Shown here: positions 23,309-53,954 of the stretch, piece by piece
How positions within the stretch are numbered: position 1 is the first letter of the stretch
How the letters are laid out: the number at the start of each line of letters is the position of its first letter
From: an uncultured Candidatus Saccharibacteria bacterium
GTDB lineage: Bacteria > Patescibacteriota > Minisyncoccia > Phycocordibacterales > Zambryskibacteraceae
Reading direction: 5' to 3'
Length of the DNA: 64,000 nt
Assembly (NCBI GenBank): GCA_964582295.1
Contig: CAZOQP010000001.1
Coordinates: 84,754 to 148,753, forward strand
Made by a program: the position numbers and the translations under genes
The notes under the pieces: generated by a model
The model's input: only the letters and a program-made list of their open reading frames with translations
What the model was told of the DNA's origin: nothing
Database searches by the model: none

Positions 23309-23358
23309 AATATCTAATTCCGTGCGCTCATGCCAAAACTTTGGCACTATGTAGGCAG

Positions 23359-23429
23359 CGGGACGTAGTATAGTGGCAGTATATATGCTTTGGGAGCATA
23401 GGGTCCGAGTTCGATTCTCGGCGTCCCGA
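23359..23429 (+). tRNA. tRNA-Pro (anticodon TGG)
   Basis: CGGGACG acceptor stem, anticodon stem-loop TATGC-TTTGGGA-GCATA, T-arm CCGAGTTCGATTCTCGG. Confidence 0.8.
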
Positions 23430-35973: not shown

Positions 35974-37923
35974 ATGGACACCACCCCCAGCACCTTAAAT
36001 CCCCACCAGAAAGAGGCCTCCGAACACCTGGAAGGCCCTCTTCTTATATTGGCGGGTGCCGGAGCAGGCAAAACCAAGACCATTACGGAGAGGATAGCCA
36101 ACCTTATAAGGCACGGAGTTGCAGCCGAATCAGTCCTTGCCATCACTTTTACAAATAAAGCCGCCAAAGAAATGCGGGAAAGAGTGCTTACACGGCTGGG
36201 ACGCGAGATGCCACGCTCATTTGAGGCGTATGGAGCTTTCGGGATACCCTTCGTCTCCACTTTTCATTCCCTTTGCGTTTTCATATTAAGGAACGAGTAC
36301 GAAGCTGTCGGCATCCCTCGGCATTTCAAGATATTTGATAAAGCTGATCAGAAAAAAGCCGTAAAGGATGCCCTCATTAAAATAGATGTTGACCCGAAAG
36401 AATATGAGCCGGGGCGCATCGCCTCCATCATCTCCAGAATGAAAAATGATTTCCTGACGCCCGACCAGGCGCGGGAAAAAGCAGAAAGCAATATATCAGA
36501 GGTCGCGGCCTCCGCTTATGCGCAGTACGAAAAAATACTCCGTGAAGAAAAAGCTCTGGATTTTGACGATCTTCTTTTCAAAACTGCAACGCTTTTCAGG
36601 AAACACGAAAATATTCTTGAACGTTATCAAAATAAATGGCTTTACATCCATATAGATGAATATCAGGACAGCAATGAAGTGCAATACGAGCTTGCACGCA
36701 TGCTTTCACTCAAGAGCCGCAACTTGTGCGTGGTCGGAGATGCGGACCAGAATATTTATTCATGGCGCGGAGCGAGTCTGAAACACATCCTGCGTTTTGA
36801 AAAAGATTATCCGGAAGCTAAAGTGATAGTTCTTGAGGAAAACTACCGCTCAACCAAACGCATTTTAGATGCCGCGAACACCGTTATCGCAAAAAATGTA
36901 CTTCGCAAAGAAAAGAATCTCTTCACCAAAAATTCTGAAGGGGAGCTTATAGGAGTGCTCGCTGCTTTTGATGAAGCGACGGAAGCGCGTTTCGCGGCGG
37001 AAACCGCTTCTTCCCTGATACGGCAGGGCACGCCACCCGAAGATATCGCCGTGCTTTACCGCGCAAACTTCCAGTCGCGGCCATTAGAGGAAGCTTTCAT
37101 ACATAATTCAGTTCCATACGAGCTGGTGGGTACAAAATTCTTTGAGCGCGAGGAAGTGAAGCATGCAGTGGCTTATATGCGCCTGCTTCTTGAGGAAACT
37201 CCCGCCGATCTAACACGTGTTGCAAACGTACCAGCACGAGGTCTCACTAAAGTTTCAGTGCTTAAAATTTTGGGCGGACAGGAAGAAGCTCTTTCACCTG
37301 CAGCTAAAAAATCCCTGGCAACTTTCAGAAATCTCATATCAAGCGGCCGCGCGTTTCTTCAGAACCACACGCCTAAAGAAACTTTGGAGCATATGCTGAA
37401 CATCTCCGGATTGGCTAACTATTACGAGGAGCGGGGCCGCGCCGGCTTAGCGGAAGATGAAGAGAAGTTTTACAACCTCCGCGAACTCGTGAACTTATCC
37501 TCGCGCTTTGAAGGGACGGGTATGGATCCTCTTATGAATTTCTTGTCCGAAGCTGCATTGCAAACGGGAGAAGACGATGCGAAAGGGGAAGGAGTGCGAC
37601 TGATGACAGTTCATTCCGCCAAGGGATTGGAGTTCTCATATGTTTTCATTGTCGGCCTTGAGGAAGGCCTTTTCCCTCACGAAAGGATGCATGAGGAGCA
37701 TCTTTCGGAAGAAGAGCGCGAGGAAGAGCGCCGCCTTTTTTACGTAGCTCTAACGCGCGCCAAGCAGAAACTTTATCTCACCTGGGCACAGACCCGCCTG
37801 GTGTTCGGATCGCGCGAAGTGAATATTCCTTCTTCATTCCTTCTTGATATTCCTTCCGAACATCTGGAAACCATTGAAAGCGAGTACGGCGGTCGCAAAT
37901 CTCTTCTCTCAATAGATTTCTAA
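35974..37923 (+). CDS. uvrD: ATP-dependent DNA helicase UvrD/PcrA family
   Basis: Walker A AGAGAGKTKTI and helicase motifs I-VI of SF1 UvrD/Rep. Confidence 0.9.
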   Translation: MDTTPSTLNPHQKEASEHLEGPLLILAGAGAGKTKTITERIANLIRHGVAAESVLAITFTNKAAKEMRERVLTRLGREMPRSFEAYGAFGIPFVSTFHSLCVFILRNEYEAVGIPRHFKIFDKADQKKAVKDALIKIDVDPKEYEPGRIASIISRMKNDFLTPDQAREKAESNISEVAASAYAQYEKILREEKALDFDDLLFKTATLFRKHENILERYQNKWLYIHIDEYQDSNEVQYELARMLSLKSRNLCVVGDADQNIYSWRGASLKHILRFEKDYPEAKVIVLEENYRSTKRILDAANTVIAKNVLRKEKNLFTKNSEGELIGVLAAFDEATEARFAAETASSLIRQGTPPEDIAVLYRANFQSRPLEEAFIHNSVPYELVGTKFFEREEVKHAVAYMRLLLEETPADLTRVANVPARGLTKVSVLKILGGQEEALSPAAKKSLATFRNLISSGRAFLQNHTPKETLEHMLNISGLANYYEERGRAGLAEDEEKFYNLRELVNLSSRFEGTGMDPLMNFLSEAALQTGEDDAKGEGVRLMTVHSAKGLEFSYVFIVGLEEGLFPHERMHEEHLSEEEREEERRLFYVALTRAKQKLYLTWAQTRLVFGSREVNIPSSFLLDIPSEHLETIESEYGGRKSLLSIDF

Positions 37924-37924
37924 T

Positions 37925-38719
37925 ATGAAACATTTTCCTAAAAAATACTTGGGTCAGCATTTTTTGAGATCAGACCCAGCTCTGAAAGCGATCGCGGATG
38001 CGGGAGAGGTGGGCAGGCAGGATGTTGTTCTTGAAATAGGGCCGGGTGAAGGAGCTCTCACTCTAAAACTTTTGCAAAAAGCCGGGAAAGTGTTCGCTGT
38101 CGAGAAAGATATTCAGTTGGTGGCCATGCTCCAGGAAAAATTTTCAACGGAAATAAATAACGGCGAACTGGAAGTTTTACATACTGATATACGTAATTTT
38201 GATCCCGCCAAAGAATTCACAGATAAGGAATACAAGCTCATTGCCAACATTCCGTATTACATAACAGGGGAAATATTGAGAATGTTTTTGGAAACAAAAA
38301 AGCAGCCGGAAAAAATGGTTCTTCTGATACAGAAAGAAGTGGCTCAAAGGATCATGGCACGCGACGGAAAAGAAAGCATTCTCTCTATTTCTATAAAAGC
38401 GTACGGAACTCCTAAAATAATAAAAACGGTTAAGGCCGGTTCATTCCATCCGGCGCCAAAAGTTGATTCGGCGATACTTGCCATTGAAAAAATATCCAAA
38501 GACAAATTTCACGCGGCCGGAGTATCCGAAAAAAGTTTTTTTGAAGTCGTCAAAAAAGGGTTCTCGAGCAAACGCAAAAAACTTTCATCAAATATGGATG
38601 TCGGAAAAGAAAAATGGACGGAGATTGCTGGGAAATTAAAAATCCGAGAGGACATCCGCGCGGAAAATGTTTCCCTTGAGGAATGGTTTGAAATAACCTC
38701 TCTTATCTTAAAAGCCTAA
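37925..38719 (+). CDS. rsmA: 16S rRNA (adenine1518/1519-N6)-dimethyltransferase
   Basis: KKYLGQHFL...VLEIGPGEGALT, the KsgA/Dim1 family SAM motif. Confidence 0.9.
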   Translation: MKHFPKKYLGQHFLRSDPALKAIADAGEVGRQDVVLEIGPGEGALTLKLLQKAGKVFAVEKDIQLVAMLQEKFSTEINNGELEVLHTDIRNFDPAKEFTDKEYKLIANIPYYITGEILRMFLETKKQPEKMVLLIQKEVAQRIMARDGKESILSISIKAYGTPKIIKTVKAGSFHPAPKVDSAILAIEKISKDKFHAAGVSEKSFFEVVKKGFSSKRKKLSSNMDVGKEKWTEIAGKLKIREDIRAENVSLEEWFEITSLILKA

Positions 38720-39175: not shown

Positions 39176-39991
39176 ATGAAGAACCTCCTTTCAGACAAGA
39201 TAACGGTGGCACTTTCCGCATCAATACTCATTTTGAGCGGAAGCACCGGCTATGCGATAGCACAAAGCCCCCGTTCCGACACCTCTCCTTTGGGGATCCG
39301 GACCGAAAATGAAAAGCAGGACATTGGAAGCCTTATAAGCGCAGAAAACGTGGAAAACTCGGTAAGCGATAACTCATCGCTTTTCACTCCAAGCACTTTC
39401 ACGGCACGTTTCGGCCAAAACGCTTTTTCCCGATTTGTACAAGCATCTCAAAGAGAGGAGGAGGTAAATGCTTCCGACATCATGGAGATCTCTAACAAGG
39501 TGGCTTCAGATCTGGCAGCAAACAGCAATATTAAGTTTACAGAATACTCCTTGGTAGACCTCTCCATAATTTCTGCTCCTACCACAAGCGACTGGCAGAA
39601 ATTCATTTCTGACATAAACACAATACGCAGCAAATATGCTTCGATATTCCGCTCTTCCACAAATTTAGGAGGTCTGGCGACACTTGGCCCAAATAATATC
39701 CCCTCAATACTCAAGGCCGGAGATCTATATTCTCAAATGGCCGAGGAGCTTTTGACAACCCCGGTGCCCGCGCCGGCCTTACAAAGTTTTTTAAAGTTGG
39801 TAAATGCTTATTCAAAAGCGGCTGCAGGACTACCCGCGTTTAAATATCTATCTGATGATCCAGTAAGAGTGATCCCCGGCCTAAGTTTGTATTCGGAAAG
39901 CCAAGACGATGAGTCCGCAGCGCTTAGTGAAATCCAGGTTCTTCTTATAAGCAATGGTATAATTTTTTCTGGGACATACCTCGCTCCCTAA
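39176..39991 (+). CDS. secreted hypothetical protein (first gene of T4SS-like operon)
   Basis: Signal peptide MKNLLSDKITVALSASILILSGSTGYAIAQ. No known motifs. Confidence 0.4.
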   Translation: MKNLLSDKITVALSASILILSGSTGYAIAQSPRSDTSPLGIRTENEKQDIGSLISAENVENSVSDNSSLFTPSTFTARFGQNAFSRFVQASQREEEVNASDIMEISNKVASDLAANSNIKFTEYSLVDLSIISAPTTSDWQKFISDINTIRSKYASIFRSSTNLGGLATLGPNNIPSILKAGDLYSQMAEELLTTPVPAPALQSFLKLVNAYSKAAAGLPAFKYLSDDPVRVIPGLSLYSESQDDESAALSEIQVLLISNGIIFSGTYLAP

Positions 39992-39994
39992 AGC

Positions 39995-41812
39995 ATGAAA
40001 AAGAAAATTTTACTTTTTATACTCTTATTCTCTATATTGGGAAGTCTTTTAATTCCATCAACTACCCAGGCCCAGGGAATAAATATCCCACCACTTACCG
40101 GACTTAGCGAAACTATTCCTCCTGTACCCGTAGGAGATGCTGCCATAAGGAAAAAAGAGGTGGGCTTTACTATTTTTGGAATAGACACGGGTATTTCATG
40201 GGACAGCATAGTGATTATGCTTGGCAGGGCGATGCTAGACAACATATTTGACAGTATGACCGACTGGGTGAACCGCGGATTTGAAGGCAATCCGACTTTC
40301 GCAACAGATCTTAATGATTATTTGTCTAAGGTTGGGGATGTTGTGATAGGAGACGCCTTGAATGAAATAACCAACGGCTTCGCCTGTGAGCCTTTTCGCC
40401 TGGAGATAAGAGCTGCCATAGAAAGAGACTTCGGGGCCGGGGGGCAAGGCAAAATTTTCAAAAACTCCTGCACTTTGAGCGAGATAGAAGCGAACGTGGA
40501 TAATTTTTTGGATGGAAGTTTTGTTGATGGCGGGTGGCCGGCATGGTTCAGGATAACCCAAGTTGATGAGAACAATCCTTACGGCTCATATTTAGAAGCA
40601 AGAGGCGCCATCACTGCAAGTATTGAAGGAGCGCGAAGTGTGGAGCTTGCTAAATTAAGCTGGAGCCAGGGATTCATAGATACACGTGAATGCCTGGAAT
40701 ATCAGACGACCGTAATGATGACAGCGGCAGGTCCTGTTCCTGTTCCTACACAGATATGTAATAAATGGGGGCCGGTAAAAACCCCCGGTGCAGTTATTGC
40801 AAACCAGGTAAATAAACAATTCGGAGCATCAACAGATCAGTTAATAACTGCAGACGAATTGGACGAATTTTTCGCGGCTGTCGTAAACCAGCTCCAGAAC
40901 ATGGTGTTCAGTAGAGATGGAATATTCCGTACGGGAGGAGCACCAAGAATTTCAGGAGCGGCAGGAGATTACAATAGACAGCCGTTCGATCTAGGAACAG
41001 GAGCTTGCACAGTCGAACCCCCCGCACCGATCGTGGTAGGTAGTGACACCACATGGAGAATAACAACTGCCGTAAACGGATCGAATCCTCAATATGTATG
41101 GAGTGGTACGGATATGAGTTCCACCACCAACGCATCCTCGCTAAAGGTTTCTTACTCAATACCCGGCGACAAAAATATGTCGGTTACCCTTTCATATGAC
41201 GAGATCGATCAATCTCAAAGTCCTGATCCAACAACTGGTCAGTATCCGACAACACGAAAAACCCAGAATGTTTCTTGCCCCACCATTCTCGTAACCCCAC
41301 CACCTCTTGCTATTTCATGCATATTAGCTCCACTGGTTATAAACTCTCCTTCCTCTACAAATCATCGTATCTCCCCTACAGATCAAAATGACAGCGTGTG
41401 GGATGGCCCGAATGATCCGGATAATATGTATGCGAGGTACAGGAACGGCACCCTTACGGAAACTGATAAAAAATATCTGGTGGTCTGGCAGGTCACTATC
41501 TCGGGCGGCTCAGGCAAACTTGACCGTATTACTGTCGAAAAGGATAGCGGTATCAATATTGGTGTGAACAGCCAGCTCCCTCCATATCTTCCGAGCCTTA
41601 ATTACTCCCCGGCAGCCGGTATCCCTGTTCAAGGCAACCCCCCATCTATCACCTTAAGACTGCCGGCCTGGTATGAAGAGAGTAATATATTTGCAAGACA
41701 GAACTTAAATGTTGATAAAACCTTAAGAATAAGCGTTCTTGATTCAGATCAGAGCATTGCGAACGGCTTTGTGAACCAATCCTGCCAATCCGTTAAAGTA
41801 ATAGGCCCATAG
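39995..41812 (+). CDS. secreted hypothetical protein, 605 aa
   Basis: Signal peptide MKKKILLFILLFSILGSLLIPSTTQAQG. Gap of 4 nt from the upstream gene. Confidence 0.4.
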   Translation: MKKKILLFILLFSILGSLLIPSTTQAQGINIPPLTGLSETIPPVPVGDAAIRKKEVGFTIFGIDTGISWDSIVIMLGRAMLDNIFDSMTDWVNRGFEGNPTFATDLNDYLSKVGDVVIGDALNEITNGFACEPFRLEIRAAIERDFGAGGQGKIFKNSCTLSEIEANVDNFLDGSFVDGGWPAWFRITQVDENNPYGSYLEARGAITASIEGARSVELAKLSWSQGFIDTRECLEYQTTVMMTAAGPVPVPTQICNKWGPVKTPGAVIANQVNKQFGASTDQLITADELDEFFAAVVNQLQNMVFSRDGIFRTGGAPRISGAAGDYNRQPFDLGTGACTVEPPAPIVVGSDTTWRITTAVNGSNPQYVWSGTDMSSTTNASSLKVSYSIPGDKNMSVTLSYDEIDQSQSPDPTTGQYPTTRKTQNVSCPTILVTPPPLAISCILAPLVINSPSSTNHRISPTDQNDSVWDGPNDPDNMYARYRNGTLTETDKKYLVVWQVTISGGSGKLDRITVEKDSGINIGVNSQLPPYLPSLNYSPAAGIPVQGNPPSITLRLPAWYEESNIFARQNLNVDKTLRISVLDSDQSIANGFVNQSCQSVKVIGP

Positions 41813-41818
41813 GACAAT

Positions 41819-44149
41819 TTGTGTGGACGGCGCGTCCAATTTTTGTCCTTTATCGGATACTATAGGAGTATGAGTTCTTCATGGAAAATACTAATTTCCT
41901 GCTTTTTGGTGTTTTCAATGGCAACAATAGTTTTCCTTCCTTTACCCGCCCACGCTCTATCTCTATTCGGTTTTGCTGCGGGGGCTATCGAGAGTGCGGT
42001 CGCGACACTTGCAAACATGGTTTTGAAGTTCTTTGCTTTCCTGTTGGGAATATGCGCTGTACTACTAGATTACTCCTTGAATCTTACGGTAGTACAGCTA
42101 AGTGAAAACCTCAAAAGTCTTACTGCTATAAACGAAACATGGTCCACCATAAGAGACTTAATAAACCTTTCATTCATATTCATTCTCCTCTTCGCAGCAA
42201 TACGCACAATTCTTGGGCTGGAATCTCCTGTAAAAGTAATAAAAAATATTGTACTCGCTGCGCTCTTCATAAATTTTTCCATGTTCTTCACGCGCGTGAT
42301 GATAGACGCCTCAAACTCTGTAGCCCTGTTCTTTTATGAACGTATAACTTCGGCAATTGTTGACACGAGTGGTTTGGGATCCGCAGCAAATATGTTATTG
42401 AGCGAGCGAGGGAAAACTTTAAGCGCCCTGTATGCCAATCCGCTTAGACTGGGAACTTTATACAAAGCGGCAGACGGAACCGCATCCCAGGTCGTAAATT
42501 CCACAAACATATACACTATCGGACTTATGGGCTCTATGATGCTCGCTTTAGTGGCTTTCGTATTTTTAACCATAGCCATAATGTTTGTTATCCGCTATGC
42601 CGCACTTATTGTTCTTCTGATATTTTCGCCGCTTGGTTTCATAAGCAAGGATCTGCCGATGATAGGGGAGTACAACCAGCAATGGTGGGGTATGCTCAAA
42701 TCACAACTCTTGTTTCCGCCCGTGTTCATGATAATGACCTGGATAACGATCAAGGTCATAAACTCGCCAGGCATTCTGGGGATATGCAAGGACCCGGGAG
42801 ATTGTAATTTTAGAGGCGCTTTGGCAGCAAGCGGGGATATTCCTGATGTGAGTGGAGTGGGCCTCATGATAAATTTTGCGGTAATAATGGCGCTCATCGT
42901 GATGTCTCTTCTTATATCAATTCAGACCGCATCCAAGGGAGCGGAGGCATTTTCAGGTCTCTACAAAAAGGCCAGCAAATGGGCAGGAGGTGCCATGTTT
43001 GGCGGCGCATCTCTTATCGGAAGACAGACGTTTGGTAGGGGATCGGAGATGCTGAAAAATACCAATATGTACACGAAGTGGGAGGCGAAATCTAAGGACA
43101 GTATGATGGCCCGTCTTGCTCTGAACACGGTAGACCAGACCAGGACCGGTTCCATGGACACGCGTGGTTCAAAGTTTGGAAAAGCATTTGCCGGGATGAC
43201 GGGCCTTGATGCGGGAGAAGCTGTGGGACAAGGTGGATTTGAAGCAGATAGAAAGGCCTACAAAGAATATTTTGCAAGACCTGGCTCAGAAGCTAAAAGG
43301 GAGAGGGACGAAAGAGCGGCTAAAGCTACGGCCGTGCTCGACATTGAGGCAGCTCAGGATCTTGATCCGGCTCAAATTGATGCAATAAGAGCTCTCGTAG
43401 GACCTCGAACACCCGACCAGCAGGAAATGGTAGATAAGATGGACAAAATGGAAAAAGCCCTTGCACGCATGACGGATAAGGAGGTGGAGGCAATAGTATC
43501 AAGCAACAAGAAACTTCTTGATAAAGAAGCATTTGCTCAAAAATTAAGCGTTCAACAACTGGAAACTATAAATAAGAGCGATAAATTCTCGGATGAAGAA
43601 AAGAGGGTCTTCAACGACAACCGCTTCAAGCAAATATCCTCAATTATTGAGGCCGCCCAAAGGACTGGAACACCAATTAGTTCTACTGATGCCAAAAAGA
43701 TTGCTGGACTTACAGATAAAGAACTTGAATACGTACCTTCAGACATCATCAACAATAAAAACTTCGTCGGAGCGTTGCGATCTTCACATATGGACTACGT
43801 AAAGAAGAGCACCAAATTCACATCTTCACAGAAAGATGCGATTAAGAATTCTCGCCAGGACGCTCTATTAGGTAGAGTCCAAACTACTCCGTCAGAAATA
43901 GCTAAATTAGATCCAAAAGACGTGGCCAGTCTATTTGACCGGGGAGTACTTACGGATCCTATATATCTAGAACATCTTAATCCTAAAAAGTTAAAGAGTA
44001 TTGGTAAGGAAATAGACGATGAGAGGAAAATAGATCAGATAAAAGCCGCAATTACTGCAGCACCTGGAGGCCCGGCAGGAGGCCCTCCAACAGGAATAGA
44101 TAGATTACAGACATGGCAAGGAAGCCCGGACTATCAAAATAATTTCTAA
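41819..44149 (+). CDS. VirB6/TrbL-like (TcpH/ConG-type) polytopic membrane protein with large C-terminal hydrophilic coiled-coil domain
   Basis: About 8 predicted TM helices in the first ~400 aa. A ~370-aa charged C-terminal region ends in a Pro/Gly-rich tail. This architecture is typical of Gram-positive T4SS VirB6 homologs. Confidence 0.5.
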   Translation: MCGRRVQFLSFIGYYRSMSSSWKILISCFLVFSMATIVFLPLPAHALSLFGFAAGAIESAVATLANMVLKFFAFLLGICAVLLDYSLNLTVVQLSENLKSLTAINETWSTIRDLINLSFIFILLFAAIRTILGLESPVKVIKNIVLAALFINFSMFFTRVMIDASNSVALFFYERITSAIVDTSGLGSAANMLLSERGKTLSALYANPLRLGTLYKAADGTASQVVNSTNIYTIGLMGSMMLALVAFVFLTIAIMFVIRYAALIVLLIFSPLGFISKDLPMIGEYNQQWWGMLKSQLLFPPVFMIMTWITIKVINSPGILGICKDPGDCNFRGALAASGDIPDVSGVGLMINFAVIMALIVMSLLISIQTASKGAEAFSGLYKKASKWAGGAMFGGASLIGRQTFGRGSEMLKNTNMYTKWEAKSKDSMMARLALNTVDQTRTGSMDTRGSKFGKAFAGMTGLDAGEAVGQGGFEADRKAYKEYFARPGSEAKRERDERAAKATAVLDIEAAQDLDPAQIDAIRALVGPRTPDQQEMVDKMDKMEKALARMTDKEVEAIVSSNKKLLDKEAFAQKLSVQQLETINKSDKFSDEEKRVFNDNRFKQISSIIEAAQRTGTPISSTDAKKIAGLTDKELEYVPSDIINNKNFVGALRSSHMDYVKKSTKFTSSQKDAIKNSRQDALLGRVQTTPSEIAKLDPKDVASLFDRGVLTDPIYLEHLNPKKLKSIGKEIDDERKIDQIKAAITAAPGGPAGGPPTGIDRLQTWQGSPDYQNNF

Positions 44150-44157
44150 AATAATCC

Positions 44158-44787
44158 ATGATAATCTCCAAAGAAAAAAGACGAGCTGCATACCAACAAC
44201 TTCCTGAAAAAATCAGAGAATATATTTCATCTGGCGGCAGTATAGAAAAAACAGATACCCTAGCGCAAAAATTTTCCTTAACCCCAAATCAGGACATTGT
44301 CCTTGATGACGAGATCACTCTTGTTCTTATGGGACTTGAAACGAAAGACGATATGCTTGCATCACTTCAGGAAAAGACGGGGATTGGAAAGAACAAGTGC
44401 CTGGAAATAATAATGGAAGCTGATAAATTTATTTTTCAGCAATTCAAACAGTGGATACCAAAACAAAATCAGGGGGCAATTAAACTAAATGCCCTAGAAC
44501 AATTGCCTCAACAACTGAAAACAATAAAGCTCCCAGATGGAGCAGCGGGTTCTTTGCCGGACCACGAAGAGATAATTAAAAATCCTATCGTAATGCCATC
44601 CAATCCTGTAATTGCAGCTGCACCAGTACCCCAAAAACCTGAAGCATCTAAGAATCTGCCTCCGATAGATAATCTTTCATGGGAAGAGAGGAAAAAGCGT
44701 GCTGAAGAAGCCCTGAAAAACATAGCGCCTACGGAAAACAAAAAGTACCCAGGCGGAGCAGATCCCTACAGGGAGCCAATCTCGTAA
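44158..44787 (+). CDS. hypothetical soluble protein in T4SS-like operon
   Basis: ORF only, tightly packed in the operon. Confidence 0.4.
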   Translation: MIISKEKRRAAYQQLPEKIREYISSGGSIEKTDTLAQKFSLTPNQDIVLDDEITLVLMGLETKDDMLASLQEKTGIGKNKCLEIIMEADKFIFQQFKQWIPKQNQGAIKLNALEQLPQQLKTIKLPDGAAGSLPDHEEIIKNPIVMPSNPVIAAAPVPQKPEASKNLPPIDNLSWEERKKRAEEALKNIAPTENKKYPGGADPYREPIS

Positions 44788-44802
44788 GCAGAGCTTACGA
44801 GA

Positions 44803-45261
44803 TTGGCGGGTTATAATATCTTTATGCGTTTTCAAGTACCACAGTTCATTGAAGTTGAAGACAAGATATTCGGACCCTTCACGTTCAAACAATTCGTTTA
44901 TCTTGCAGGTGGGGCAGGGATGATAGCTATTGCCTTCACGTTTCTTCCTAAGTTCTTGGCTTTTCTTGTAGCCCTTCCTATTGCAGGACTTGCGGCAGCC
45001 CTTACTTTTTACAAAGTGAATAACCGTCCTTTCATTTACACACTGGAGGCATACCTCAACTATCTGCTCACTAAAAAACTTTTCGTATGGAAAACCAGGC
45101 AAAGGACGGCGCAAGCCCATCCTTCGGCCGACACAAATTCTGAAAGACCGCAGGTGCAAGTGCCTAAAATTTCAGGGAGCAGACTTCGCGACCTTACATG
45201 GGATCTGAGCGTTAAAGGACGGACCGACATAAATCAAACAAAAGACACGGATACCGTTTAA
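44803..45261 (+). CDS. VirB3-like / TcpE-like small 2-TM protein
   Basis: FGPFTFKQFVYLAGGAGMIAIAFTFLPKFLAFLVALPIAGLAAALTFY. Two TM helices, directly upstream of the VirB4 genes as in Gram-positive T4SS. Confidence 0.4.
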   Translation: MAGYNIFMRFQVPQFIEVEDKIFGPFTFKQFVYLAGGAGMIAIAFTFLPKFLAFLVALPIAGLAAALTFYKVNNRPFIYTLEAYLNYLLTKKLFVWKTRQRTAQAHPSADTNSERPQVQVPKISGSRLRDLTWDLSVKGRTDINQTKDTDTV

Positions 45262-45291
45262 TACTATAATTACGGCTGGAGAATATTCACA

Positions 45292-45924
45292 ATGCCAATA
45301 TCCGCACAATCTACACAAGACTTCGTACCTATAAAAGACGTGCGCGACGGAGTCGTCATTTTAAAAGACGGAGGATTGAGAAGTATCCTGATGACATCAT
45401 CTGTCAATTTTTCCCTGAAGTCGGAGGACGAGAAGACCGCCATCATTTATCAGTTCCAGGATTTTCTGAATTCCCTTGATTTCTCAGTGCAAATACTGAT
45501 GCAGTCCCGCAAGCACGACATCAGACCTTACTTGGCTCTCCTTGAAGGCCGCAAAAAAGAGCAGATGAACGATCTTTTGAAGATCCAAATACAGGAATAC
45601 ATAGAGTTCATAAAAACTTTTACAGAACGCCAGAACATAATGACGAAAAGTTTTTTCGTGGTAGTGCCCTATACTCCGAATGCCCTTAATAACTCCAATT
45701 TCATGCAGAAAGTCATGCCTGGAAAAGGAACACCCACCCAAAAGAAAGAAGGGAAATTTGAAGAGGACGTCGTTCAGCTTGATCAGCGCCTCTCTGTTGT
45801 AATGCAGGGGCTTTCGCGCTGCGGCTTGCGAGCAGTTCGCCTTGGCACAGAAGAGGTAATCGAGCTTTTCTACAAAGTTTTCAACCCCGGGGAAACAGAG
45901 AAGCCGATCCAGATGCAATCATAA
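45292..45924 (+). CDS. VirB4-family N-terminal domain protein (separate ORF)
   Basis: FVPIKDVRDGVVILKDGGLRSILMTSSVNFSLKSEDEKTAIIYQFQDFLNSL resembles the N-terminal region of Gram-positive VirB4/TrsE/ConE ATPases. Ends with TAA 2 nt before the next ATG, in a different frame. Confidence 0.45.
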   Translation: MPISAQSTQDFVPIKDVRDGVVILKDGGLRSILMTSSVNFSLKSEDEKTAIIYQFQDFLNSLDFSVQILMQSRKHDIRPYLALLEGRKKEQMNDLLKIQIQEYIEFIKTFTERQNIMTKSFFVVVPYTPNALNNSNFMQKVMPGKGTPTQKKEGKFEEDVVQLDQRLSVVMQGLSRCGLRAVRLGTEEVIELFYKVFNPGETEKPIQMQS

Positions 45925-45926
45925 AT

Positions 45927-47765
45927 ATGTCTTTCCTAGATATTTTCAAATCAAAAAATAAAGAGGGGAATGCACCAGCGCCCGGCAATATTCTTCCTAA
46001 AGAAGTGTACGACTCAAGTGTGCTTGACCTTAAAGACATCATCGCACCAAGCGCTCTTAAGATAGGCCAGAAGCATCTTGATCTCGGAGACAAAGTGGTT
46101 AGAAGTTTTTTCGTAATTTCTTATCCGCGCTTTCTTGCAGAAGGATGGTTCGCCCCCATCATCAATCTGGACAAGGTTTTTGACGTTTCCATATTCGTAC
46201 ACCCAGCTGAAACCTCAACCGTATTAAGGCAATTCCAAAAGAAAGTGGCTGAAGTCCAAAGCCAGATACACGAAAGGGAGGAGAAGGGCCTGGTTCGCGA
46301 TCCTATGCTTGATGTGGCTTACCAGGACCTTGAAAATCTCCGCGATCAGCTTCAGCAGGCGCAGGAACGCCTCTTTGATGTCGGCCTTTACATCTCTATT
46401 TACGCGGACAATGAATCAGAGCTAGACAAAATAGAATCCGAGATGAAATCCATCCTTGAAGCGAAGATGGTGTATATTAAGCCCGCACTTTTCCAGCAGA
46501 ATGACGGCTTCGCTTCCTCTCTTCCTATCTGCGAAGATGCACTCAAAGTAAACCAGAAGCTCAATTCTTCGCCTTTATCATCTCTTTTCCCGTTCATTTC
46601 CTTTGACCTCACATCAGACCGCGGCGTACTTTACGGAATAAACCGCCACAATTCATCCCTCGTCTTGTTTGATCGCTTCTCTCTTGAAAACTACAACTCC
46701 ATCACCTTCGCAAAATCCGGTGCCGGAAAATCTTATGCGACCAAGCTTGAAATATTGCGCTCCCTTATGTTCGAGACCGATGTCATTGTCATTGATCCGG
46801 AGCGTGAATACGAATACCTGGCAGAAGCCGTGGGTGGGCGCTACTTCAACATTTCCCTCAATTCGGAGCACCACATAAACCCCTTTGAATTGCCGCTTCC
46901 CGGGCCTGATGAATCGGCTGCAAGCGTTTTGCGTTCAAACATTGTGAATCTGGTGGGGCTTTTCCGACTAATGCTCGGAGGACTTACCCCAGAAGAGGAT
47001 GCTCTTATAGACAGAGCATTAAGCGAAACATATGCCCTCAAAGACATCACTCCCGATTCCGATTTCAGAAATATAGAGCCACCACTTCTTTCAGACTTTG
47101 AGCTGGTGCTTTCAGGGCTTGAGGGAGGAGAATCTCTTGCACAGCGCCTTTCCAAATACACCAAAGGAACTTGGGCTGGCTTCATCAACCGCCCTTCTAA
47201 TGTGGATATCAACAAAAAATTCGTGGTCTTTTCTCTCCGCGATATGGAAGATGAACTGAAGCCTATTGCCATGTACATCGTGACCCACTTCATATGGAGC
47301 GCCGTCAGAAAGGAGTTGAAGAAACGCCTGCTTGTCATAGACGAGGCATGGTGGATGATGAAATCAGAAGACACAGCATCTTTCCTTTTGAACATGGCAA
47401 AACGTGGCAGAAAATATTTCCTGGGGCTTGCAACCATCACCCAAGACGTTGACGACTTCCTGAAATCGCCCTACGGAACGCCTATTATCACAAACTCGTC
47501 CATTCAAATACTTTTAAAACAATCCCCGACGGCAATCGACCGTCTTCAGGAGGTCTTCAATCTGACAGATGAAGAAAAATATCTCCTTCTTGAATCAGGG
47601 GTAGGAGAGGGCATTTTCTTCGCAGGTCTCAAGCATGTCGCCATAAAAATAATCGCCTCCTACACAGAAGACCAGATAATCACTTCCGACCCATCACAGC
47701 TCCTCGCTATCGCAAAATCAAAACAGGAAGCTAAAAATACAAATGAAGGAACGGCGATTCTCTAA
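45927..47765 (+). CDS. virB4: type IV secretion VirB4-family ATPase
   Basis: YPRFLAEGW N-domain motif, Walker A AKSGAGKSY, Walker B LLVIDEAWWMM (the VirB4 DEAW motif), and the C-terminal ATPase core. Confidence 0.8.
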   Translation: MSFLDIFKSKNKEGNAPAPGNILPKEVYDSSVLDLKDIIAPSALKIGQKHLDLGDKVVRSFFVISYPRFLAEGWFAPIINLDKVFDVSIFVHPAETSTVLRQFQKKVAEVQSQIHEREEKGLVRDPMLDVAYQDLENLRDQLQQAQERLFDVGLYISIYADNESELDKIESEMKSILEAKMVYIKPALFQQNDGFASSLPICEDALKVNQKLNSSPLSSLFPFISFDLTSDRGVLYGINRHNSSLVLFDRFSLENYNSITFAKSGAGKSYATKLEILRSLMFETDVIVIDPEREYEYLAEAVGGRYFNISLNSEHHINPFELPLPGPDESAASVLRSNIVNLVGLFRLMLGGLTPEEDALIDRALSETYALKDITPDSDFRNIEPPLLSDFELVLSGLEGGESLAQRLSKYTKGTWAGFINRPSNVDINKKFVVFSLRDMEDELKPIAMYIVTHFIWSAVRKELKKRLLVIDEAWWMMKSEDTASFLLNMAKRGRKYFLGLATITQDVDDFLKSPYGTPIITNSSIQILLKQSPTAIDRLQEVFNLTDEEKYLLLESGVGEGIFFAGLKHVAIKIIASYTEDQIITSDPSQLLAIAKSKQEAKNTNEGTAIL

Positions 47766-48102
47766 AAATACCAGGAGGATACTTTTTACCGCCGCCATCA
47801 TCCTTGAGCTTGCTCAATTCTCCGTACAAGCGCTTCCTGTAGTCGGGCAGGTAATGGGTTCAGTAATTGGAGGAGTATTTTTTGCTTTTTCTTTTATAGT
47901 GGCAAAAGTTCACGGCATCAAATTCGTAAAGCCGAAAAAGGTTTTAGGGCTGGGTGTCGTTACTTTTATTGAACTCATGCCCCTCATAGGCGCTCTGCCC
48001 GGATGGACCATATATGTGTGGAGATTAGTTGCAGATAACAAGAAAAACACAGAGCCACCTGTGGGGGAAAAGACGGCGGCGCAAGAAACAAACAGGATAT
48101 AA
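47743..48102 (+). CDS. small 3-TM membrane protein in T4SS-like operon
   Basis: Hydrophobic helices ILFTAAIILELAQF, VIGGVFFAFSFIVA, LGVVTFIELMPLIGALPGW. Overlaps the virB4 3' end by 23 nt. Confidence 0.4.
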   Translation: MKERRFSKNTRRILFTAAIILELAQFSVQALPVVGQVMGSVIGGVFFAFSFIVAKVHGIKFVKPKKVLGLGVVTFIELMPLIGALPGWTIYVWRLVADNKKNTEPPVGEKTAAQETNRI

Positions 48103-48109
48103 TAGAAAT

Positions 48110-49111
48110 ATGAGATCGCTCTTCACTTTAGGCGCGTGCCTCTTCATATTTTTTTCATCGTCTGTAAATGCCAACGCCCAGATTGATGGGGCAACCATCA
48201 AAACCATAAGAGAGAATGGTATAACTCTTTCCGCCCGGCCGGAATTCCCTAAACCCGGGGAAACCGTAGTGGTTTCGCTTTCCGCCACTTCAGTAGATTT
48301 AGATAGCGCCACCATCACGTGGTTCGTAAACGAGAGAGTGATAGTTAAAGGTATAGGGGAAAAACAAGTGAGCATATCCGCTCCTTCGGCAGGAACTATA
48401 ACTTCCGTGAGGGTTTCCATATCAAGCGGAGGATTCATATACGAAAAAAGTACCACTGTAAATGGGGCCGGGGTTTCTCTTATATGGGAGGCCCGCTCCT
48501 ATGTTCCGCCTCTTTTCTACGGCAAAGCGCTCCCTACCCGCGGTTCTTTCATTGTGTTGCAGGCCATTCCGCATTTCAAAAGCGGGGGCGTATCCGTCAG
48601 TCCTCAAAATCTTGTCTTTACCTGGAAACAGGATGGGGCTGTCATTCAAAACCGTTCCGGCTACGGAAAAGATTCTTTCAACTTCATGAACGACAGTTTC
48701 AAGGACACAACAACGATAGAGGTTTCGGCCAAAACTCTTGATGATAGATTTACCGCGTCTGATTCAATAACCATCACGCGCCAAAACCCTCGCATAGGCC
48801 TTTACCGCTTTTCTCTTCTTTACGGCAGTCTTTTGCAAGAAGAAGAATCTAACCAGAACCTGGTGGGGGAAAGGGAGATCGGAATCCGTGCTGTGCCATG
48901 GTACTCTCCCATTAATCCGTCTTTCCGTTTTCAAGTCCCGAATCTGAATTGGATGGTGGGGAAAACCAGTGCCAGCAATAACGGCCTTACGTATCTAATG
49001 ATAGAGAACCGAAATGGAACGGCCAATACGGGAACTGTTTCGGTATCCATCAAAGAACCAAAGCATTTTGGTGAAGACAAAGTTTCTTCGGTCAATCTGC
49101 AATTTGAGTAA
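48110..49111 (+). CDS. secreted beta-rich hypothetical protein
   Basis: ORF 48029..49111. Likely start MRSLFTLGACLFIFFSSSVNANAQ (signal peptide) at 48110. Confidence 0.4.
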   Translation: MRSLFTLGACLFIFFSSSVNANAQIDGATIKTIRENGITLSARPEFPKPGETVVVSLSATSVDLDSATITWFVNERVIVKGIGEKQVSISAPSAGTITSVRVSISSGGFIYEKSTTVNGAGVSLIWEARSYVPPLFYGKALPTRGSFIVLQAIPHFKSGGVSVSPQNLVFTWKQDGAVIQNRSGYGKDSFNFMNDSFKDTTTIEVSAKTLDDRFTASDSITITRQNPRIGLYRFSLLYGSLLQEEESNQNLVGEREIGIRAVPWYSPINPSFRFQVPNLNWMVGKTSASNNGLTYLMIENRNGTANTGTVSVSIKEPKHFGEDKVSSVNLQFE

Positions 49112-49112
49112 T

Positions 49113-50081
49113 ATGAAAAAATTACATACTAAAATACTTATCTCTTTCGTACTACTGTCTTTAGTGTTCGCGTTCACCACGGCAGTGCAGGCACAAAATA
49201 CTCCGGAGCCTATAAAATATGTACCCCTTGAACAAGTGCCGGGTTTAACTGTAGGATCGGGAGAAACTGCTTACATTGACCTTGCTCAATATCTTCCAAA
49301 TCTAATTAAGTTGGCCATAGGCCTTGCCGCGGCGCTTTCTGTTATTTACATAATCGTAGGAGGGTTCCAGTATCTTTCAACGGACGCTATTTCAGGCAAA
49401 AGCGAGGGGAAGGAAAAAATACAGAATGCTCTCTGGGGTTTGGCTCTTGCCATCGGCTCGTGGGTGATACTCAATACTATTAACCCGGCCTTGGTAAATA
49501 TAAATTTGGATATTCAGCCAACAGCTCCATTAGCCGCCCCATCTCCTGGAGAAACTATTGGGGGCGGCCCGGGAGATTCATGCCCGCGTATGCAGGGGGG
49601 CAGTACCGAACCATGTATATGTGTTGATTGTGTGGACGGTCCAATTGGAGTTAGATTCAAATCGGCAGGGCATAAAATGAATGCCAGCCTCGCCACCAAA
49701 TTACAAAGGGCAATGGAAGGTTTTTTCCTTGAAGGACCCACTTCAGCAGATGAACCTGTCCCAACAAAGATACCTATAGAGTGGTGGGTAACTGAAGCTT
49801 GGGCCCCCAGATCAGCACATCAAAGCAGATGCCACTACAATGGTGCATGTATTGATCTCAATACTATCCCCGGGTTCACATCCGGCTCTACCCCAACAAG
49901 AGTGCTCGCCGAAAAACTTAATATAATAGCTGATGAGCTTAAAAGTGAGGGCCTTAGCGTTGTAATTTTTGAAGTGAAGACACAGCAAGACATGGACCGT
50001 TTAACTGGAGTGGGAGTAAGAAGAGATTTCTTACGTTTAAATCCAGGGGCATCGGAATCTCATTTCCATATTGGACTGTAA
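49113..50081 (+). CDS. VirB2/TrbC-like pilin domain fused to Cys-rich C-terminal extracellular domain
   Basis: Signal peptide, then two hydrophobic helices (LIKLAIGLAAALSVIYIIVGGFQYL; LWGLALAIGSWVILNTINPAL) separated by a charged loop (SGKSEGKEKIQNA). C-terminal ~200 aa carry CPRMQGGSTEPCICVDCVDG...RCHYNGACID. Start at MKKLHTK (49113). Confidence 0.45.
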   Translation: MKKLHTKILISFVLLSLVFAFTTAVQAQNTPEPIKYVPLEQVPGLTVGSGETAYIDLAQYLPNLIKLAIGLAAALSVIYIIVGGFQYLSTDAISGKSEGKEKIQNALWGLALAIGSWVILNTINPALVNINLDIQPTAPLAAPSPGETIGGGPGDSCPRMQGGSTEPCICVDCVDGPIGVRFKSAGHKMNASLATKLQRAMEGFFLEGPTSADEPVPTKIPIEWWVTEAWAPRSAHQSRCHYNGACIDLNTIPGFTSGSTPTRVLAEKLNIIADELKSEGLSVVIFEVKTQQDMDRLTGVGVRRDFLRLNPGASESHFHIGL

Positions 50082-50087
50082 ATTATC

Positions 50088-51284
50088 GTGAACAAAAAAC
50101 TTATAATTTTAATTCTTGTTGTGATCCTCATCGGGGGAGGAATTTCGTTTTTCTTTCTCTCTAAAAATACGACGACGGCACCCGCTGTAGTTACCGGGAC
50201 TGACAGTCCTTTTGGTGTGGGGAGAGCGGGGGAAAGGGCGGGCGAGCCGGCAGAGCAAAATAATAATGAGAATACTAATTCAATATCCGTAAATCAGGAC
50301 GGAGTGGTCATAAAGAAAATAGTTTCAGAGCCGGTAGCCGGTTTCATATTTATAGGCAAAGGAGCTTCAACTACTATCCGGTATGCCGAACGCGGGAGCG
50401 GACGCGTGAATGATATTTCTCTAGGTACCACTCCTGAAACCCAAAAAGTAACAGGTGACACCCAATCTCGCATCGTATCTGCTGTATTCCTAGAACAAGG
50501 GAAAGGTCTTTTGAGGTTCAAAGAAACCGATACGGGATCAGTTACCGCCTTGTATTCAAAAGTAGCCACATCCTCAGTAAGTAAGGAGATATCAGGAACT
50601 ATTTTAGACCTTGATGTCACAGCGGATGGGAATAAAGTCATATTCGTATTTGAAGACGAACTTGGCTCTGCCATAACAACCGCGAACGGGGACGGGACAG
50701 GCGCCCAAGTGGCATGGAGAAGCTCTCTTCAGGAATGGCTTGTGCAAGGTCTTAATAAAAATGTCATCTCTATTCAGACAAAGTCCGCAAGGGGTATGCC
50801 TGGATCAGCATTTATTATTTCGGGCGGCGCCTCCGAATTATATCTTTCAGGGCAAAGCGGTTTCAGAGCCATGGTAAGCCCAGACGGAATGTTCGCGGTC
50901 TTCAGCGACTATACAAACACGGCTTCGCCCGTGCAGATTTATGATAAAGAGGCGGAAGAAAAACGCGGACTATTTCTCAATACTCTTCCTGAAAAATGCG
51001 TGTGGTCCAATATAAAAGCAGACGGTCTTTATTGCATAGAATTCGCCGGACGGAACACTGGTCTTCCGGACATTTGGTACAGAGGAGAAATATTTTTGAA
51101 TGCAGGCAAAGTGTGGAGAATATCCGCCAAGACAAACATTGAAGAATCTTTGGCCGACCTCGGAAGCTTGAATGAAGCTATTGATGCGATAGAGCTTGGC
51201 TTATCTTCAGACGAACAGTGGCTCGGATTTATGAATAAAAGAGATTACTCTCTGTGGGTGATAGATCTCTCGGGAGCTAACTAG
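50088..51284 (+). CDS. membrane-anchored exported protein, beta-propeller-like, hypothetical
   Basis: N-terminal TM anchor (LIILILVVILIGGGISFFFL). TolB/WD40-like segments (VSPDGMFAVFSDY). Confidence 0.4.
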   Translation: MNKKLIILILVVILIGGGISFFFLSKNTTTAPAVVTGTDSPFGVGRAGERAGEPAEQNNNENTNSISVNQDGVVIKKIVSEPVAGFIFIGKGASTTIRYAERGSGRVNDISLGTTPETQKVTGDTQSRIVSAVFLEQGKGLLRFKETDTGSVTALYSKVATSSVSKEISGTILDLDVTADGNKVIFVFEDELGSAITTANGDGTGAQVAWRSSLQEWLVQGLNKNVISIQTKSARGMPGSAFIISGGASELYLSGQSGFRAMVSPDGMFAVFSDYTNTASPVQIYDKEAEEKRGLFLNTLPEKCVWSNIKADGLYCIEFAGRNTGLPDIWYRGEIFLNAGKVWRISAKTNIEESLADLGSLNEAIDAIELGLSSDEQWLGFMNKRDYSLWVIDLSGAN

Positions 51285-52008
51285 TCGCAACAGTTATATT
51301 TTGTCCGCCAGCTGGCGGAGCAAATTTTTTCTTTAGATAAAGATCCTGAATGATGGTTAAAATATTTGAAGTCGTCCAATAAAGACCAACTACGCCGGAT
51401 ATCTGCCACGACACAACGAAAGCAAGGATGGGGAATATCACTCTCATTTGGATTTTCATCATGCGCGCAAGCGCTTCGTTCTTGCCTCCTATATCCTGGG
51501 CCGCGCTTGAAAGATGTATCTGGATGTAGCTCGTAATACCTGCAAGGATAGCAAGGACGAGACTTTTCTCAGTAAGCACTGCTAGCCCTAAGAAAGACAT
51601 ATCTATAGCCGCAGGATACGGAATGAAGCTATACAGAAGGTCAGCATTAATAACAGGTAAACCGGACTGGACCAGAATGTAGTAGAGGCCGAAGATGATC
51701 GGTATCTGGAGAAAAAGAACCACGATGCCGGAGAATGGATTGGTTTTTGATTCCGAATAAACCTCCATTATTTTTTTTGCCTGCATTTCCTTATCGTTGG
51801 GGTACTCGGCTTTGATGGCTTCCATCTTCGGCTGGAGACGTTTCATTTCCATTTGCGAGCGATAAGCTTTTTTTGAAAGAGGGAAGAGTATGAGACGCAC
51901 TATAAAAGTGAAAATGATGACCAGAAATCCTGCATCAAGAGCCGGGAAGAGGTCCGCGAGAAGAATGAAGATGTTGTAGAGCGGCTGGGATATAAGGGTG
52001 CGGAACAT
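51277..52008 (-). CDS. yidC: membrane protein insertase YidC (short Gram-positive type)
   Basis: YidC/Oxa1 core helices. Position immediately downstream of rnpA. Confidence 0.85.
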   Translation of the reverse strand: MFRTLISQPLYNIFILLADLFPALDAGFLVIIFTFIVRLILFPLSKKAYRSQMEMKRLQPKMEAIKAEYPNDKEMQAKKIMEVYSESKTNPFSGIVVLFLQIPIIFGLYYILVQSGLPVINADLLYSFIPYPAAIDMSFLGLAVLTEKSLVLAILAGITSYIQIHLSSAAQDIGGKNEALARMMKIQMRVIFPILAFVVSWQISGVVGLYWTTSNILTIIQDLYLKKKFAPPAGGQNITVATS

Positions 52009-52351: not shown

Positions 52352-52485
52352 TAGACGGAGAGGCTCTTTCTGCCCTTTCTCCTCCGGCGAAGGAGGGTTT
52401 TTCGGCCTCCGGGGGTTGCCTTGCGGGTCAAAAACCCGTGGCTTCGCTTTCTTTTTTTCTTTTTAGGCTGGTATGTCTGCGACAT
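52351..52485 (-). CDS. rpmH: 50S ribosomal protein L34
   Basis: Not in the ORF track (44 aa). Manual translation gives [44 protein letters not shown]. Its stop overlaps the rnpA start (TAATG). Confidence 0.85.
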
Positions 52486-52613
52486 GTTGTCTTGATTTAA
52501 GAGTTATGTTGTTATTTTCTTATGCACATTTCGTCCACACATTATTACCACAATTAACGGATATCTTCAACTGTACGTGGCGTCTCCCACCTATATACTT
52601 AACGTCCAAGATT

Positions 52614-53954
52614 ATGGACACCCGAGTACTCTGGAACAACATTTTAAACGATATCGAGCTAGCTGTCTCCAAAGCCACTTTCAATACATGGTTCCGGGAC
52701 ACTTTCATACTCAAGTATGACGACGGCACCGTTTCCGTAGCTGTCCCCAACAATTTTGTAGAAGAGTGGCTCAAAACCAAGCATCACGGCCTTATTTTGA
52801 AGCTCCTACGCACTAAAGATGACTCCGTGCACGCACTGGAATACGTGATCGCCAAGGATGATCGCCTGAAGAGAAGGGAAAAGGAGATGCGTATAGACAG
52901 AGAGTCGTCTTCTCTCCCTCTAGGCGACCTTATAAACCGGGATGACAACCTCAACCCACGTTATACATTTGATTCATTTGTCATCGGACCGTTCAATGAG
53001 CTTGCTCACGCCGCAGCACAAGCCATCATTCGCCAGCCAGGCCTCACATACAACCCCCTTTTCATATACGGCAACACTGGCCACGGCAAAACCCACCTTA
53101 TCCAATCAATAGGCAACGCCCTCAAGGCCGCACACAAAGAAAAGAGAGTTCTTTACATCACGTCGGAACGCTTCGCATCAGACATCACAAGCTCCATTCA
53201 GACGGGCAAGATTGCCCAAGTGAAGGATAAGTACCGCACCTTTGATACTTTGATCATGGACGACATCCAATTTTTTGCGAACAAGGAAAAAACCCAAGAA
53301 GAACTTTTTCATCTTTTCAATTCCCTATACGACAACAACAAGCAGATAGTCTTTTCATCAGACAAGCACCCGAATCTCATCCCGAACCTTGAAGACCGGC
53401 TGAAATCGCGCTTTGCTCAGGGAATGACCGTTGACATCCAACCACCTGATTTTGAATCACGTCTGGCGATCCTTGCTAAAAAAGCGGAGCTTATGGGTTT
53501 TTGCCTCGGGGAAGAGGTGTGCGGATTCCTTGCGAACACCATTACGGGAAATATCCGGGAGCTTGAAGGTATTTTAAACTCCATTGTCATGCAGACACAG
53601 CTTAAGGGAAAGGAGCTCACCATAAACGACATCCGCAACCTTGTGAAAAGCAACCTGAAACCAAAGAGAATGATCGCTCCTAAGGAAGTAGTGAAGATGA
53701 TCGCAGATTTTTATCATGTGGAAGAGGAAAGCATCTATGAAAAGACACGCAGGAAGGAAGTTATAAAGCCGAGGCAGATAGCCATGTACATTTTGCGCGA
53801 GGATTTCAATATTTCTTATCCGTCCATTGGAGAGAAGCTTGGTGGAAGGGACCATACCACAGTCATACACTCGTGCGAGAAAATAAAAAATGACATCAAG
53901 CTCAATACGGAGCTTTTGGAGGAGATAAACCAACTCCGCACCATGATCACCTGA
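52614..53954 (+). CDS. dnaA: chromosomal replication initiator protein DnaA
   Basis: ORF 52473..53954. Likely start MDTRVLWNNILNDIELAVSKATFNTWF (domain I). AAA+ Walker A GNTGHGKTHL. C-terminal DNA-binding domain IV. Confidence 0.9.
   Translation: MDTRVLWNNILNDIELAVSKATFNTWFRDTFILKYDDGTVSVAVPNNFVEEWLKTKHHGLILKLLRTKDDSVHALEYVIAKDDRLKRREKEMRIDRESSSLPLGDLINRDDNLNPRYTFDSFVIGPFNELAHAAAQAIIRQPGLTYNPLFIYGNTGHGKTHLIQSIGNALKAAHKEKRVLYITSERFASDITSSIQTGKIAQVKDKYRTFDTLIMDDIQFFANKEKTQEELFHLFNSLYDNNKQIVFSSDKHPNLIPNLEDRLKSRFAQGMTVDIQPPDFESRLAILAKKAELMGFCLGEEVCGFLANTITGNIRELEGILNSIVMQTQLKGKELTINDIRNLVKSNLKPKRMIAPKEVVKMIADFYHVEEESIYEKTRRKEVIKPRQIAMYILREDFNISYPSIGEKLGGRDHTTVIHSCEKIKNDIKLNTELLEEINQLRTMIT

Follow-up and report, generated by a model that had tools for sequence, protein, structure and literature searches.

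Has a virB4 gene that is found in two pieces been broken, is it decoded across the break, or is it simply two genes? This question is raised by positions 45,292 to 47,765 of a 64,000-nucleotide (nt) stretch of DNA (contig CAZOQP010000001.1, positions 84,754 to 148,753; referred to below, as a whole, as the window), where two adjacent open reading frames (ORFs), ORF1 and ORF2, together resemble VirB4, the ATPase of type IV secretion systems (T4SSs). The original prediction, made from the letters of the window, had offered a genuine two-gene VirB4, a frameshift (in a pseudogene or programmed) and a sequencing indel as possible explanations. Our analysis indicates that ORF1 and ORF2 very probably constitute a genuine and conserved two-gene VirB4 on a chromosome of the Patescibacteria (Candidate Phyla Radiation, CPR) of the Paceibacteria type. 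The first of the three options is supported by the presence of the split in 32 out of 32 related loci that no contig end truncates, by thousands of ORF1 homologues of about 210 amino acids (aa) and by purifying selection.

Layout of the locus

The locus is made up of the following elements.

44803-45261, + strand: gene for a PrgI-family (VirB3-like) small membrane protein (Pfam PF12666, E 2.9e-10; score 41 bits, cut-off 27)
45292-45924, + strand: ORF1, 210 aa, ATG start, TAA stop at 45922-45924; predicted stand-alone TrsD-like or 'TraC-like' protein, corresponding to the first half of the N-terminal domain of VirB4
45922-45929, + strand: ORF1/ORF2 junction, consisting of the ORF1 TAA, a 2-nt spacer 'AT' (45925-45926) and the ORF2 ATG, as read directly from the sequence
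45927-47765, + strand: ORF2, 612 aa, ATG start; predicted VirB4 core, with the second half of the N-terminal domain (approximately residues 1-231) and the RecA-like ATPase C-terminal domain

The gene order in the window is prgI (VirB3-like), ORF1, ORF2. The ORF list and the raw sequence agree with the coordinates first reported for the two ORFs, with their separation by TAA and 2 nt, and with their location in different frames, the start positions being 2 apart modulo 3. The sequence at the junction (within 45900-45950) is TAAATATG. No GGAG, GAGG or AGGA was seen when the approximately 20 nt before the ORF2 ATG were read by eye. A stop and a start codon arranged in this way are of the kind typical of translational coupling, and from this layout ORF2 may be coupled to ORF1. 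Most of the motifs quoted in the original prediction were present as quoted (PIKDVRDGVVILKDGG, SLKSEDEKTAIIYQFQDFL, YPRFLAEGW, GAGKS and VIDEAW); the one given as INFSLK in fact reads VNFSLK.

ORF2 and the VirB4 core

Judged by its sequence, ORF2 is a VirB4-type ATPase. It matched NF045971, the model for VirB4 of the CD1110 family, at 367.2 bits (E 1.7e-109); this score exceeds the cut-off of 325 and upholds the identification of ORF2 as the rest of VirB4. Walker A (GAGKS) and Walker B (VIDEAW) nucleotide-binding motifs are present in its translation, and Pfam matches were obtained to P-loop_TraG, AAA_10 and DUF87. Residues 232-587 aligned to the crystallised VirB4 C-terminal domain (PDB 4AG5, E 7e-42), TrwK of R388 aligned to residues 257-561, and residues 126-202 matched the last ~75 positions of Pfam TraC_F_IV.

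The full-length form described by NF045971 is one polypeptide over approximately 752 positions, including the N-terminal ~180. ORF2 is shorter than this, its residues 31-572 covering positions 183-733, and it is without the N-terminal ~180-220 residues of one-piece VirB4 proteins such as PrgJ. The original prediction had proposed an alignment with full-length VirB4 and TrsE; in the alignments made here, the match to ORF2 begins at residue 220 of PrgJ and at residue 28 of TrsE. As residue 31 of ORF2 pairs with residue 220 of PrgJ (pCF10, one piece, 796 aa), PrgJ is longer by ~190 residues at the N-terminus, a stretch of the size of ORF1. Since the ATPase domain runs from about ORF2 residue 232, and the end of TraC_F_IV falls at residues 126-202, the break lies inside the VirB4 N-terminal domain, away from the boundary between the N-terminal and C-terminal domains.

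ORF1 and the VirB4 N-terminus

Three NCBIfam profiles matched ORF1. Residues 9-130 matched positions 2-125 of the 752 in NF045971 (E 3e-6), so that ORF1 and ORF2 cover a single VirB4 model colinearly and without overlap. Residues 6-125 matched positions 102-233 of the 894 in NF045975 (VirB4_plasma, E 2e-11), and residues 6-127 matched positions 13-144 of the 201 in the TrsD/TraD model NF041427 (E 1e-7). Both VirB4 N-terminal models were matched by 34 out of 34 ORF1 homologues, and the TrsD model by 33 of the 34. ORF1 had been described as the extreme N-terminal part of a monoderm (Gram-positive) VirB4, and this description agrees with the three models (E 2e-11 to 3e-6) and with 33-34 of the 34 homologues. 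The size and place of ORF1 (210 aa, between the PrgI gene and ORF2) also fit what is expected of TrsD, a stand-alone gene of ~200-230 aa. The TrsD matches of the 33 ORF1 relatives fall under the curated NF041427 cut-off, as does that of ORF1 itself. On these profile scores, ORF1 is a remote TrsD homologue that lies outside the TrsD subfamily as NCBI delimits it with NF041427.

PF26593 'TraC-like' is the precomputed Pfam label of a protein 100% identical to ORF1 (P0001), and of the gene in locus L041. When ORF1 was compared using hmmscan with a local Pfam copy, which may or may not include PF26593, no match was obtained at E <=0.01, and the only trace was a faint match to TraC_F_IV (E 0.06).

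An AlphaFold2 model of ORF1, made with a 34-sequence alignment, had a mean pLDDT of 74 and a pTM of 0.59. The best 14 matches to this model in a Foldseek search of the PDB were all R388 TrwK/VirB4 chains (probability 0.99-1.00, E 4e-4 to 1e-2, query TM-score 0.40-0.53), and at the fifteenth match the probability fell to 0.28. Searches of PDB sequences with ORF1 (phmmer) and with a hidden Markov model of the 34 ORF1 homologues gave no meaningful match, VirB4 being found by the fold comparison alone. Homology of ORF1 to VirB4 N-terminal domains, the lack of which would have refuted the original prediction, was found in the profile matches, and the TrwK chains returned by Foldseek agree with it.

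The split in related loci

The simplest alternative to two genes is that a frameshift mutation, or a sequencing or assembly indel, has broken a one-piece virB4 and left a pseudogene or an artefact. Two adjacent ORFs in different frames and 2 nt apart are the expected product of a 1-2 nt indel. The bearing of related loci on this explanation was assessed in a scan of species-representative genomes, which gave 34 loci with 42-79% identity to ORF1, 32 of them not truncated by a contig end. The nearest homologues were all from metagenome-assembled genomes (MAGs) of Paceibacteria, Zambryskibacteria or Minisyncoccia. A PrgI homologue was found directly upstream of the ORF1 homologue in 34 out of 34 loci. 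The comparison with orthologous loci suggested in the original prediction showed the order PrgI, ORF1 homologue, ORF2 homologue in 32 out of 32 untruncated loci, with a stop codon and then a spacer of 1-41 nt between the two homologues. The ORF1 homologues in these loci are 206-246 aa long, and the ORF2 homologues, as called, 542-632 aa (mostly ~590-630). The spacer is 5 nt or shorter in 15 of the 32 loci (16 of 33 with the window). Modulo 3, it is 1 in 18, 2 in 10 and 0 in 5 of the 33 loci including the window, so that all three relative frames are represented. On the 5.7-kb contig DATGWK010000001.1 (L008), whose label is 'Candidatus Nanoarchaeia archaeon', there is a PrgI gene together with an ORF1 homologue 62% identical to that of the window; this is probably a Patescibacteria contig that was mis-binned into an archaeal MAG.

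At least 7,977 ORF1 homologues are present in a large protein database, and the 120 best were without exception stand-alone proteins of 207-240 aa from Patescibacteria, with the precomputed label PF26593 'TraC-like'. To bring out any fused relatives, a 230-aa chimeric query spanning the junction was used, and no full-length fused protein was found among 2,660 matches. The junction was bridged by just four singleton fragments of 189-328 aa. We took these for assembly damage; the contig of the best one has a shattered virB4 region. On that contig (ENA ERZ25039527 contig_92561, 3883-6387; L039), the ORF1 homologue reads on through ~110 residues at the start of the VirB4 piece to give a protein of 328 aa, and the remainder of virB4 is called as pieces of 63, 103 and 142 aa. 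This looks like an indel-rich assembly or a decayed copy. It illustrates a truly frameshifted version of the locus, and shows that damage of the kind supposed does exist in public assemblies.

The window locus differs from this picture. Compared with eight relatives, ORF1 had pN (proportion of nonsynonymous differences) of 0.12-0.25 and pS (proportion of synonymous differences) of 0.72-0.97; for ORF2, pN was 0.08-0.16 and synonymous differences were saturated. As pN is far under a saturated pS, both ORFs, which are intact, must be under purifying selection. Invariant residues of ORF1 extend to P205, five short of the stop, in the 34-sequence alignment, and the ORF2 homologues have in common an N-terminus of the type M-x-x-F-x-x-F-K. 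The independently built Logan assembly SRR6868922 (contig SRR6868922_593) matches the window letter for letter across 1,109 nt that include the junction. An indel or pseudogene is therefore extremely improbable: the disruption is not private to one genome, it comes with differing spacers and frames, and the ends of both products are conserved on either side of a junction that a second assembly reproduces.

A second alternative is that programmed ribosomal frameshifting, or read-through of the stop codon, yields a single VirB4 polypeptide from ORF1 and ORF2. In the frame of ORF2, the 48 codons before its ATG contain no stop, which makes a shift formally possible, and in the 5 of 33 loci in which the genes share a frame some have a single stop codon between them. 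However, two stop codons separate the genes in other in-frame loci (L022 and L029), the frame relation is not conserved, and the spacers differ in sequence as well as in length. The ORF1 C-terminus is conserved in the ORF1 frame up to the stop, which leaves no space for a shift site upstream. Reading by eye revealed no in-register X_XXY_YYZ heptamer at the junction, and both an ATG and an N-terminal motif are conserved in ORF2 itself. We therefore give this explanation almost no credence. Conservation of the split with varied spacers and in all three frames excludes both a private indel and a conserved programmed frameshift, and the frameshift and indel options of the original prediction thus fall on conservation, varied frames, selection and the identical independent assembly, in favour of two genes.

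Split VirB4 proteins in other systems

The closest parallel is within the phylum. A survey of T4SS genes in Patescibacteria (Quiñonero-Coronel et al. 2025, Microb Genom; PMC12102498) listed 2,272 TrsD homologues from 2,221 assemblies, reported virB4 alongside 1,664 of these homologues, and stated the likeness of TrsD to the VirB4 N-terminus. TrsD is not named in the main text of Guglielmini et al. 2014 (PMC4027160). The pair in the window shares with the TrsD-VirB4 pairs of the survey its phylum, its position beside PrgI/VirB3, a pilin-like gene nearby and a chromosomal setting by ksgA and dnaA, with no substantive difference (PMC12102498).

The Staphylococcus aureus plasmid pSK41 has the order trsC (VirB3-like), trsD (227 aa, TrsD/TraD family), trsE (672 aa, DUF87), which is the order found here. 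Residue 26 of ORF2 aligned with residue 28 of TrsE, so that the breakpoint is identical. The two ATPases are 23% identical (E 1e-32 to 1e-31), a weaker match than that of ORF2 to the one-piece PrgJ (E 1e-42 to 6e-42). pSK41 and pGO1 form the pGO1 subclass of MPF-FATA, with TrsD/TraD and TrsE/TraE, and their likeness in sequence to the window pair is remote. pSK41 is also a plasmid conjugation system with a relaxase and a coupling protein, whereas the window cluster is chromosomal, and neither a relaxase nor a coupling protein was identified among the scanned genes near the window pair.

A tblastn search of a plasmid collection with ORF1 gave matches in 128 records, including the closest non-CPR relatives found there. 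On Bacillus thuringiensis Bt407 BTB_502p, PrgI is followed by a hypothetical protein of 328 aa that matches ORF1 and a DUF87 ATPase of 661 aa; on Clostridium perfringens pJFP838A, the corresponding proteins are 312 and 641 aa. ORF2 aligned to these ATPases from near their N-termini (E 2e-81 and 6e-78, ~30% identity), and they are closer to ORF2 than PrgJ or TrsE are. With the ORF1 profile, the N-pieces gave E 1e-23 to 2e-25. Both pairs are split at almost the same point as the window pair, and the Firmicutes N-pieces are longer than ORF1, by ~40 residues at the N-terminus and ~100 at the C-terminus. Both plasmids are typed as non-mobilizable, and their N-pieces are annotated just as 'hypothetical protein'. 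A plasmid-borne clpX lies a few kb upstream of the split pair on both of these unrelated megaplasmids (L035, 124-7833; L037, 1745-7875).

On a Haloarcula pelagica plasmid (L036, 4977-8929), a 556-aa protein with an N-terminal ORF1-like domain (ORF1 profile E 2e-11) is followed, with a 4-nt overlap, by a VirB4-like ATPase of 761 aa (ORF2 E 3e-40). Residue 77 of this ATPase aligned with ORF2 residue 36, placing the split ~40 residues off, and the N-piece has ~340 extra C-terminal residues compared with ORF1. By its sequence, the pair resembles an archaeal split VirB4 whose N-piece is much longer. Further haloarchaeal plasmid matches in the same tblastn search (H22-H25 and H30) also have an ORF1-like domain.

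All of these systems differ from the one-piece VirB4 proteins, such as PrgJ of pCF10 and the CD1110 family, or the diderm TrwK of R388 (PDB 7O41 and 8RTD), in which one polypeptide takes the place of two.

These comparisons bear on a third alternative, in which ORF1 is an independent accessory protein, for example a regulator or an adaptor, and is related to the VirB4 N-terminus by descent alone. The extra C-terminal sequence in the N-pieces of the Firmicutes and haloarchaeal plasmids (328, 312 and 556 aa) is in keeping with this, as is the faster evolution of ORF1 (dN, the nonsynonymous divergence, of 0.13-0.31 compared with 0.09-0.18 for ORF2). TrsD is given no function in the literature, and in Gracilibacteria the TrsD homologues do not adjoin virB4 (PMC12102498). 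However, ORF1 supplies, colinearly and without overlap, the very N-terminal ~180-220 residues that are missing from ORF2; adjacency and order are invariant in 32 loci; and the stop and start codons lie very close together both in the window and in around half of the loci. We consider an independent accessory role unlikely, and a part of VirB4 encoded by its own gene remains the preferred reading of ORF1.

Genomic setting

ORF1 and ORF2 lie inside a run of + strand genes that extends from 39176 to 51284. The neighbouring features are listed here.

35974-37923: uvrD-like gene, flanking the run
37925-38719: ksgA, flanking the run
41819-44149, + strand: 776-aa protein; as read from the translation, its N-terminal half has hydrophobic segments that appear to span the membrane
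44158-44787, + strand: 209-aa protein in the T4SS-like gene run
47743-48102, + strand: small hydrophobic ORF of 119 aa, overlapping the ORF2 stop by 23 nt
49014-50081, + strand: ORF of 355 aa with a weak match to T4SS_pilin (PF18895, E 0.001, below the cut-off) at residues 96-156
51277-52008, - strand: yidC, flanking the run
52473-53954: dnaA, flanking the run

The flanking housekeeping genes, dnaA among them, place the cluster on the chromosome near the replication origin, with the T4SS-like run probably next to it. This position between uvrD-like/ksgA and yidC/dnaA is the placement reported for Paceibacteria (PMC12102498), where virB4, as in other classes, is commonly near dnaA, dnaN, ksgA, rnpA and rpmH. 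The ORFs at 47743-48102 and 49014-50081 may be VirB2-like pilins of the kind described for Patescibacteria. Beyond its T4SS_pilin match, the second of these continues into a long, unclassified C-terminal region. No Pfam match was obtained for the genes of the run at 39176-39991, 39995-41812, 41819-44149, 44158-44787 and 50088-51284. Elsewhere in the window, six tRNA genes are clustered at 22481-23429, with both strands represented (Gly-TCC, Gly-GCC, Pro-CGG, Arg-TCG, Pro-GGG and Pro-TGG), and a separate tRNA-His gene at 6622-6694.

Discussion

We found no evidence in this analysis that contradicts the reading of ORF1 and ORF2 as two genes for one VirB4. It nevertheless has several weak points. 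ORF1 scored 32 bits against the TrsD model NF041427, far under its curated cut-off of 200. Direct comparison of an ORF1 profile with pSK41 TrsD using hhalign was marginal (E 0.06), the profile being shallow (Neff 1.8) and set against a single sequence, and the same profile found nothing in the single sequence of PrgJ. Because of these two results, the proposed homology of ORF1 to TrsD and the VirB4 N-terminus rests on curated family profiles and on a predicted fold. The Foldseek output comes without the aligned region of TrwK, and the assignment of ORF1 to the N-terminus is taken from the profile coordinates. Finally, the physical association of the ORF1 and ORF2 products, their translational coupling and the contact with PrgI are inferred.

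The VirB4 N-terminal domain contacts VirB3 and the membrane platform in the R388 structure. ORF1 is a TrsD-like protein that corresponds to the opening ~180-220 residues of a monoderm VirB4 made in one piece, with ORF2 as the remainder, and by analogy the ORF1 piece might contact the VirB3-like PrgI and the membrane platform. The tight stop/start spacing suggests that translation of ORF2 is coupled to the end of ORF1 translation; roughly equimolar products would be the outcome. The two polypeptides would then assemble non-covalently into a VirB4-like unit or protomer.

A more speculative view, which we hold to be possible but doubtful, is that the 'TraC-like' N-module is an ancient and autonomous subunit of monoderm and archaeal T4SSs that serves a separate function, for instance to control how the ATPase docks to VirB3 and the membrane. 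A large branch of MPF-FATA might then have inherited the two-gene state from its ancestor, or that state might have arisen repeatedly at a structurally permissive seam. The grounds for this view are that the break falls at or near the same point in the Patescibacteria, pSK41/pGO1-type, Bacillus/Clostridium and haloarchaeal (~40 residues off) systems, and that ORF2 is closer to other split ATPases than to the one-piece PrgJ.

The two-gene arrangement of a TrsD-like protein and VirB4 is already known in Patescibacteria (PMC12102498), and the window is one more instance of it. To that account we add the breakpoint shared by Patescibacteria, pSK41 and Firmicutes plasmids (with the haloarchaeal one ~40 residues off), the way in which spacer and frame vary, and the match between the predicted fold of the N-piece and TrwK. 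For annotation, the two genes (TrsD-like/TraC-like and VirB4) should be kept, neither merged nor flagged as a pseudogene.

The locus represents another copy of the origin-proximal T4SS of Patescibacteria. This system is treated as established and growth-essential in a 2025 review (PMC12857230), and the TrsD homologue of Ca. S. epibionticum ML1 is listed as essential (PMC12102498). A T4SS of this kind has been reported to be essential for the epibiotic growth of Ca. Southlakia epibionticum, and probably not for conjugation. For the TrsD-like piece, the consistent breakpoint and the tight coupling of the genes provide a concrete hypothesis: it may be a detachable N-terminal subdomain of VirB4.

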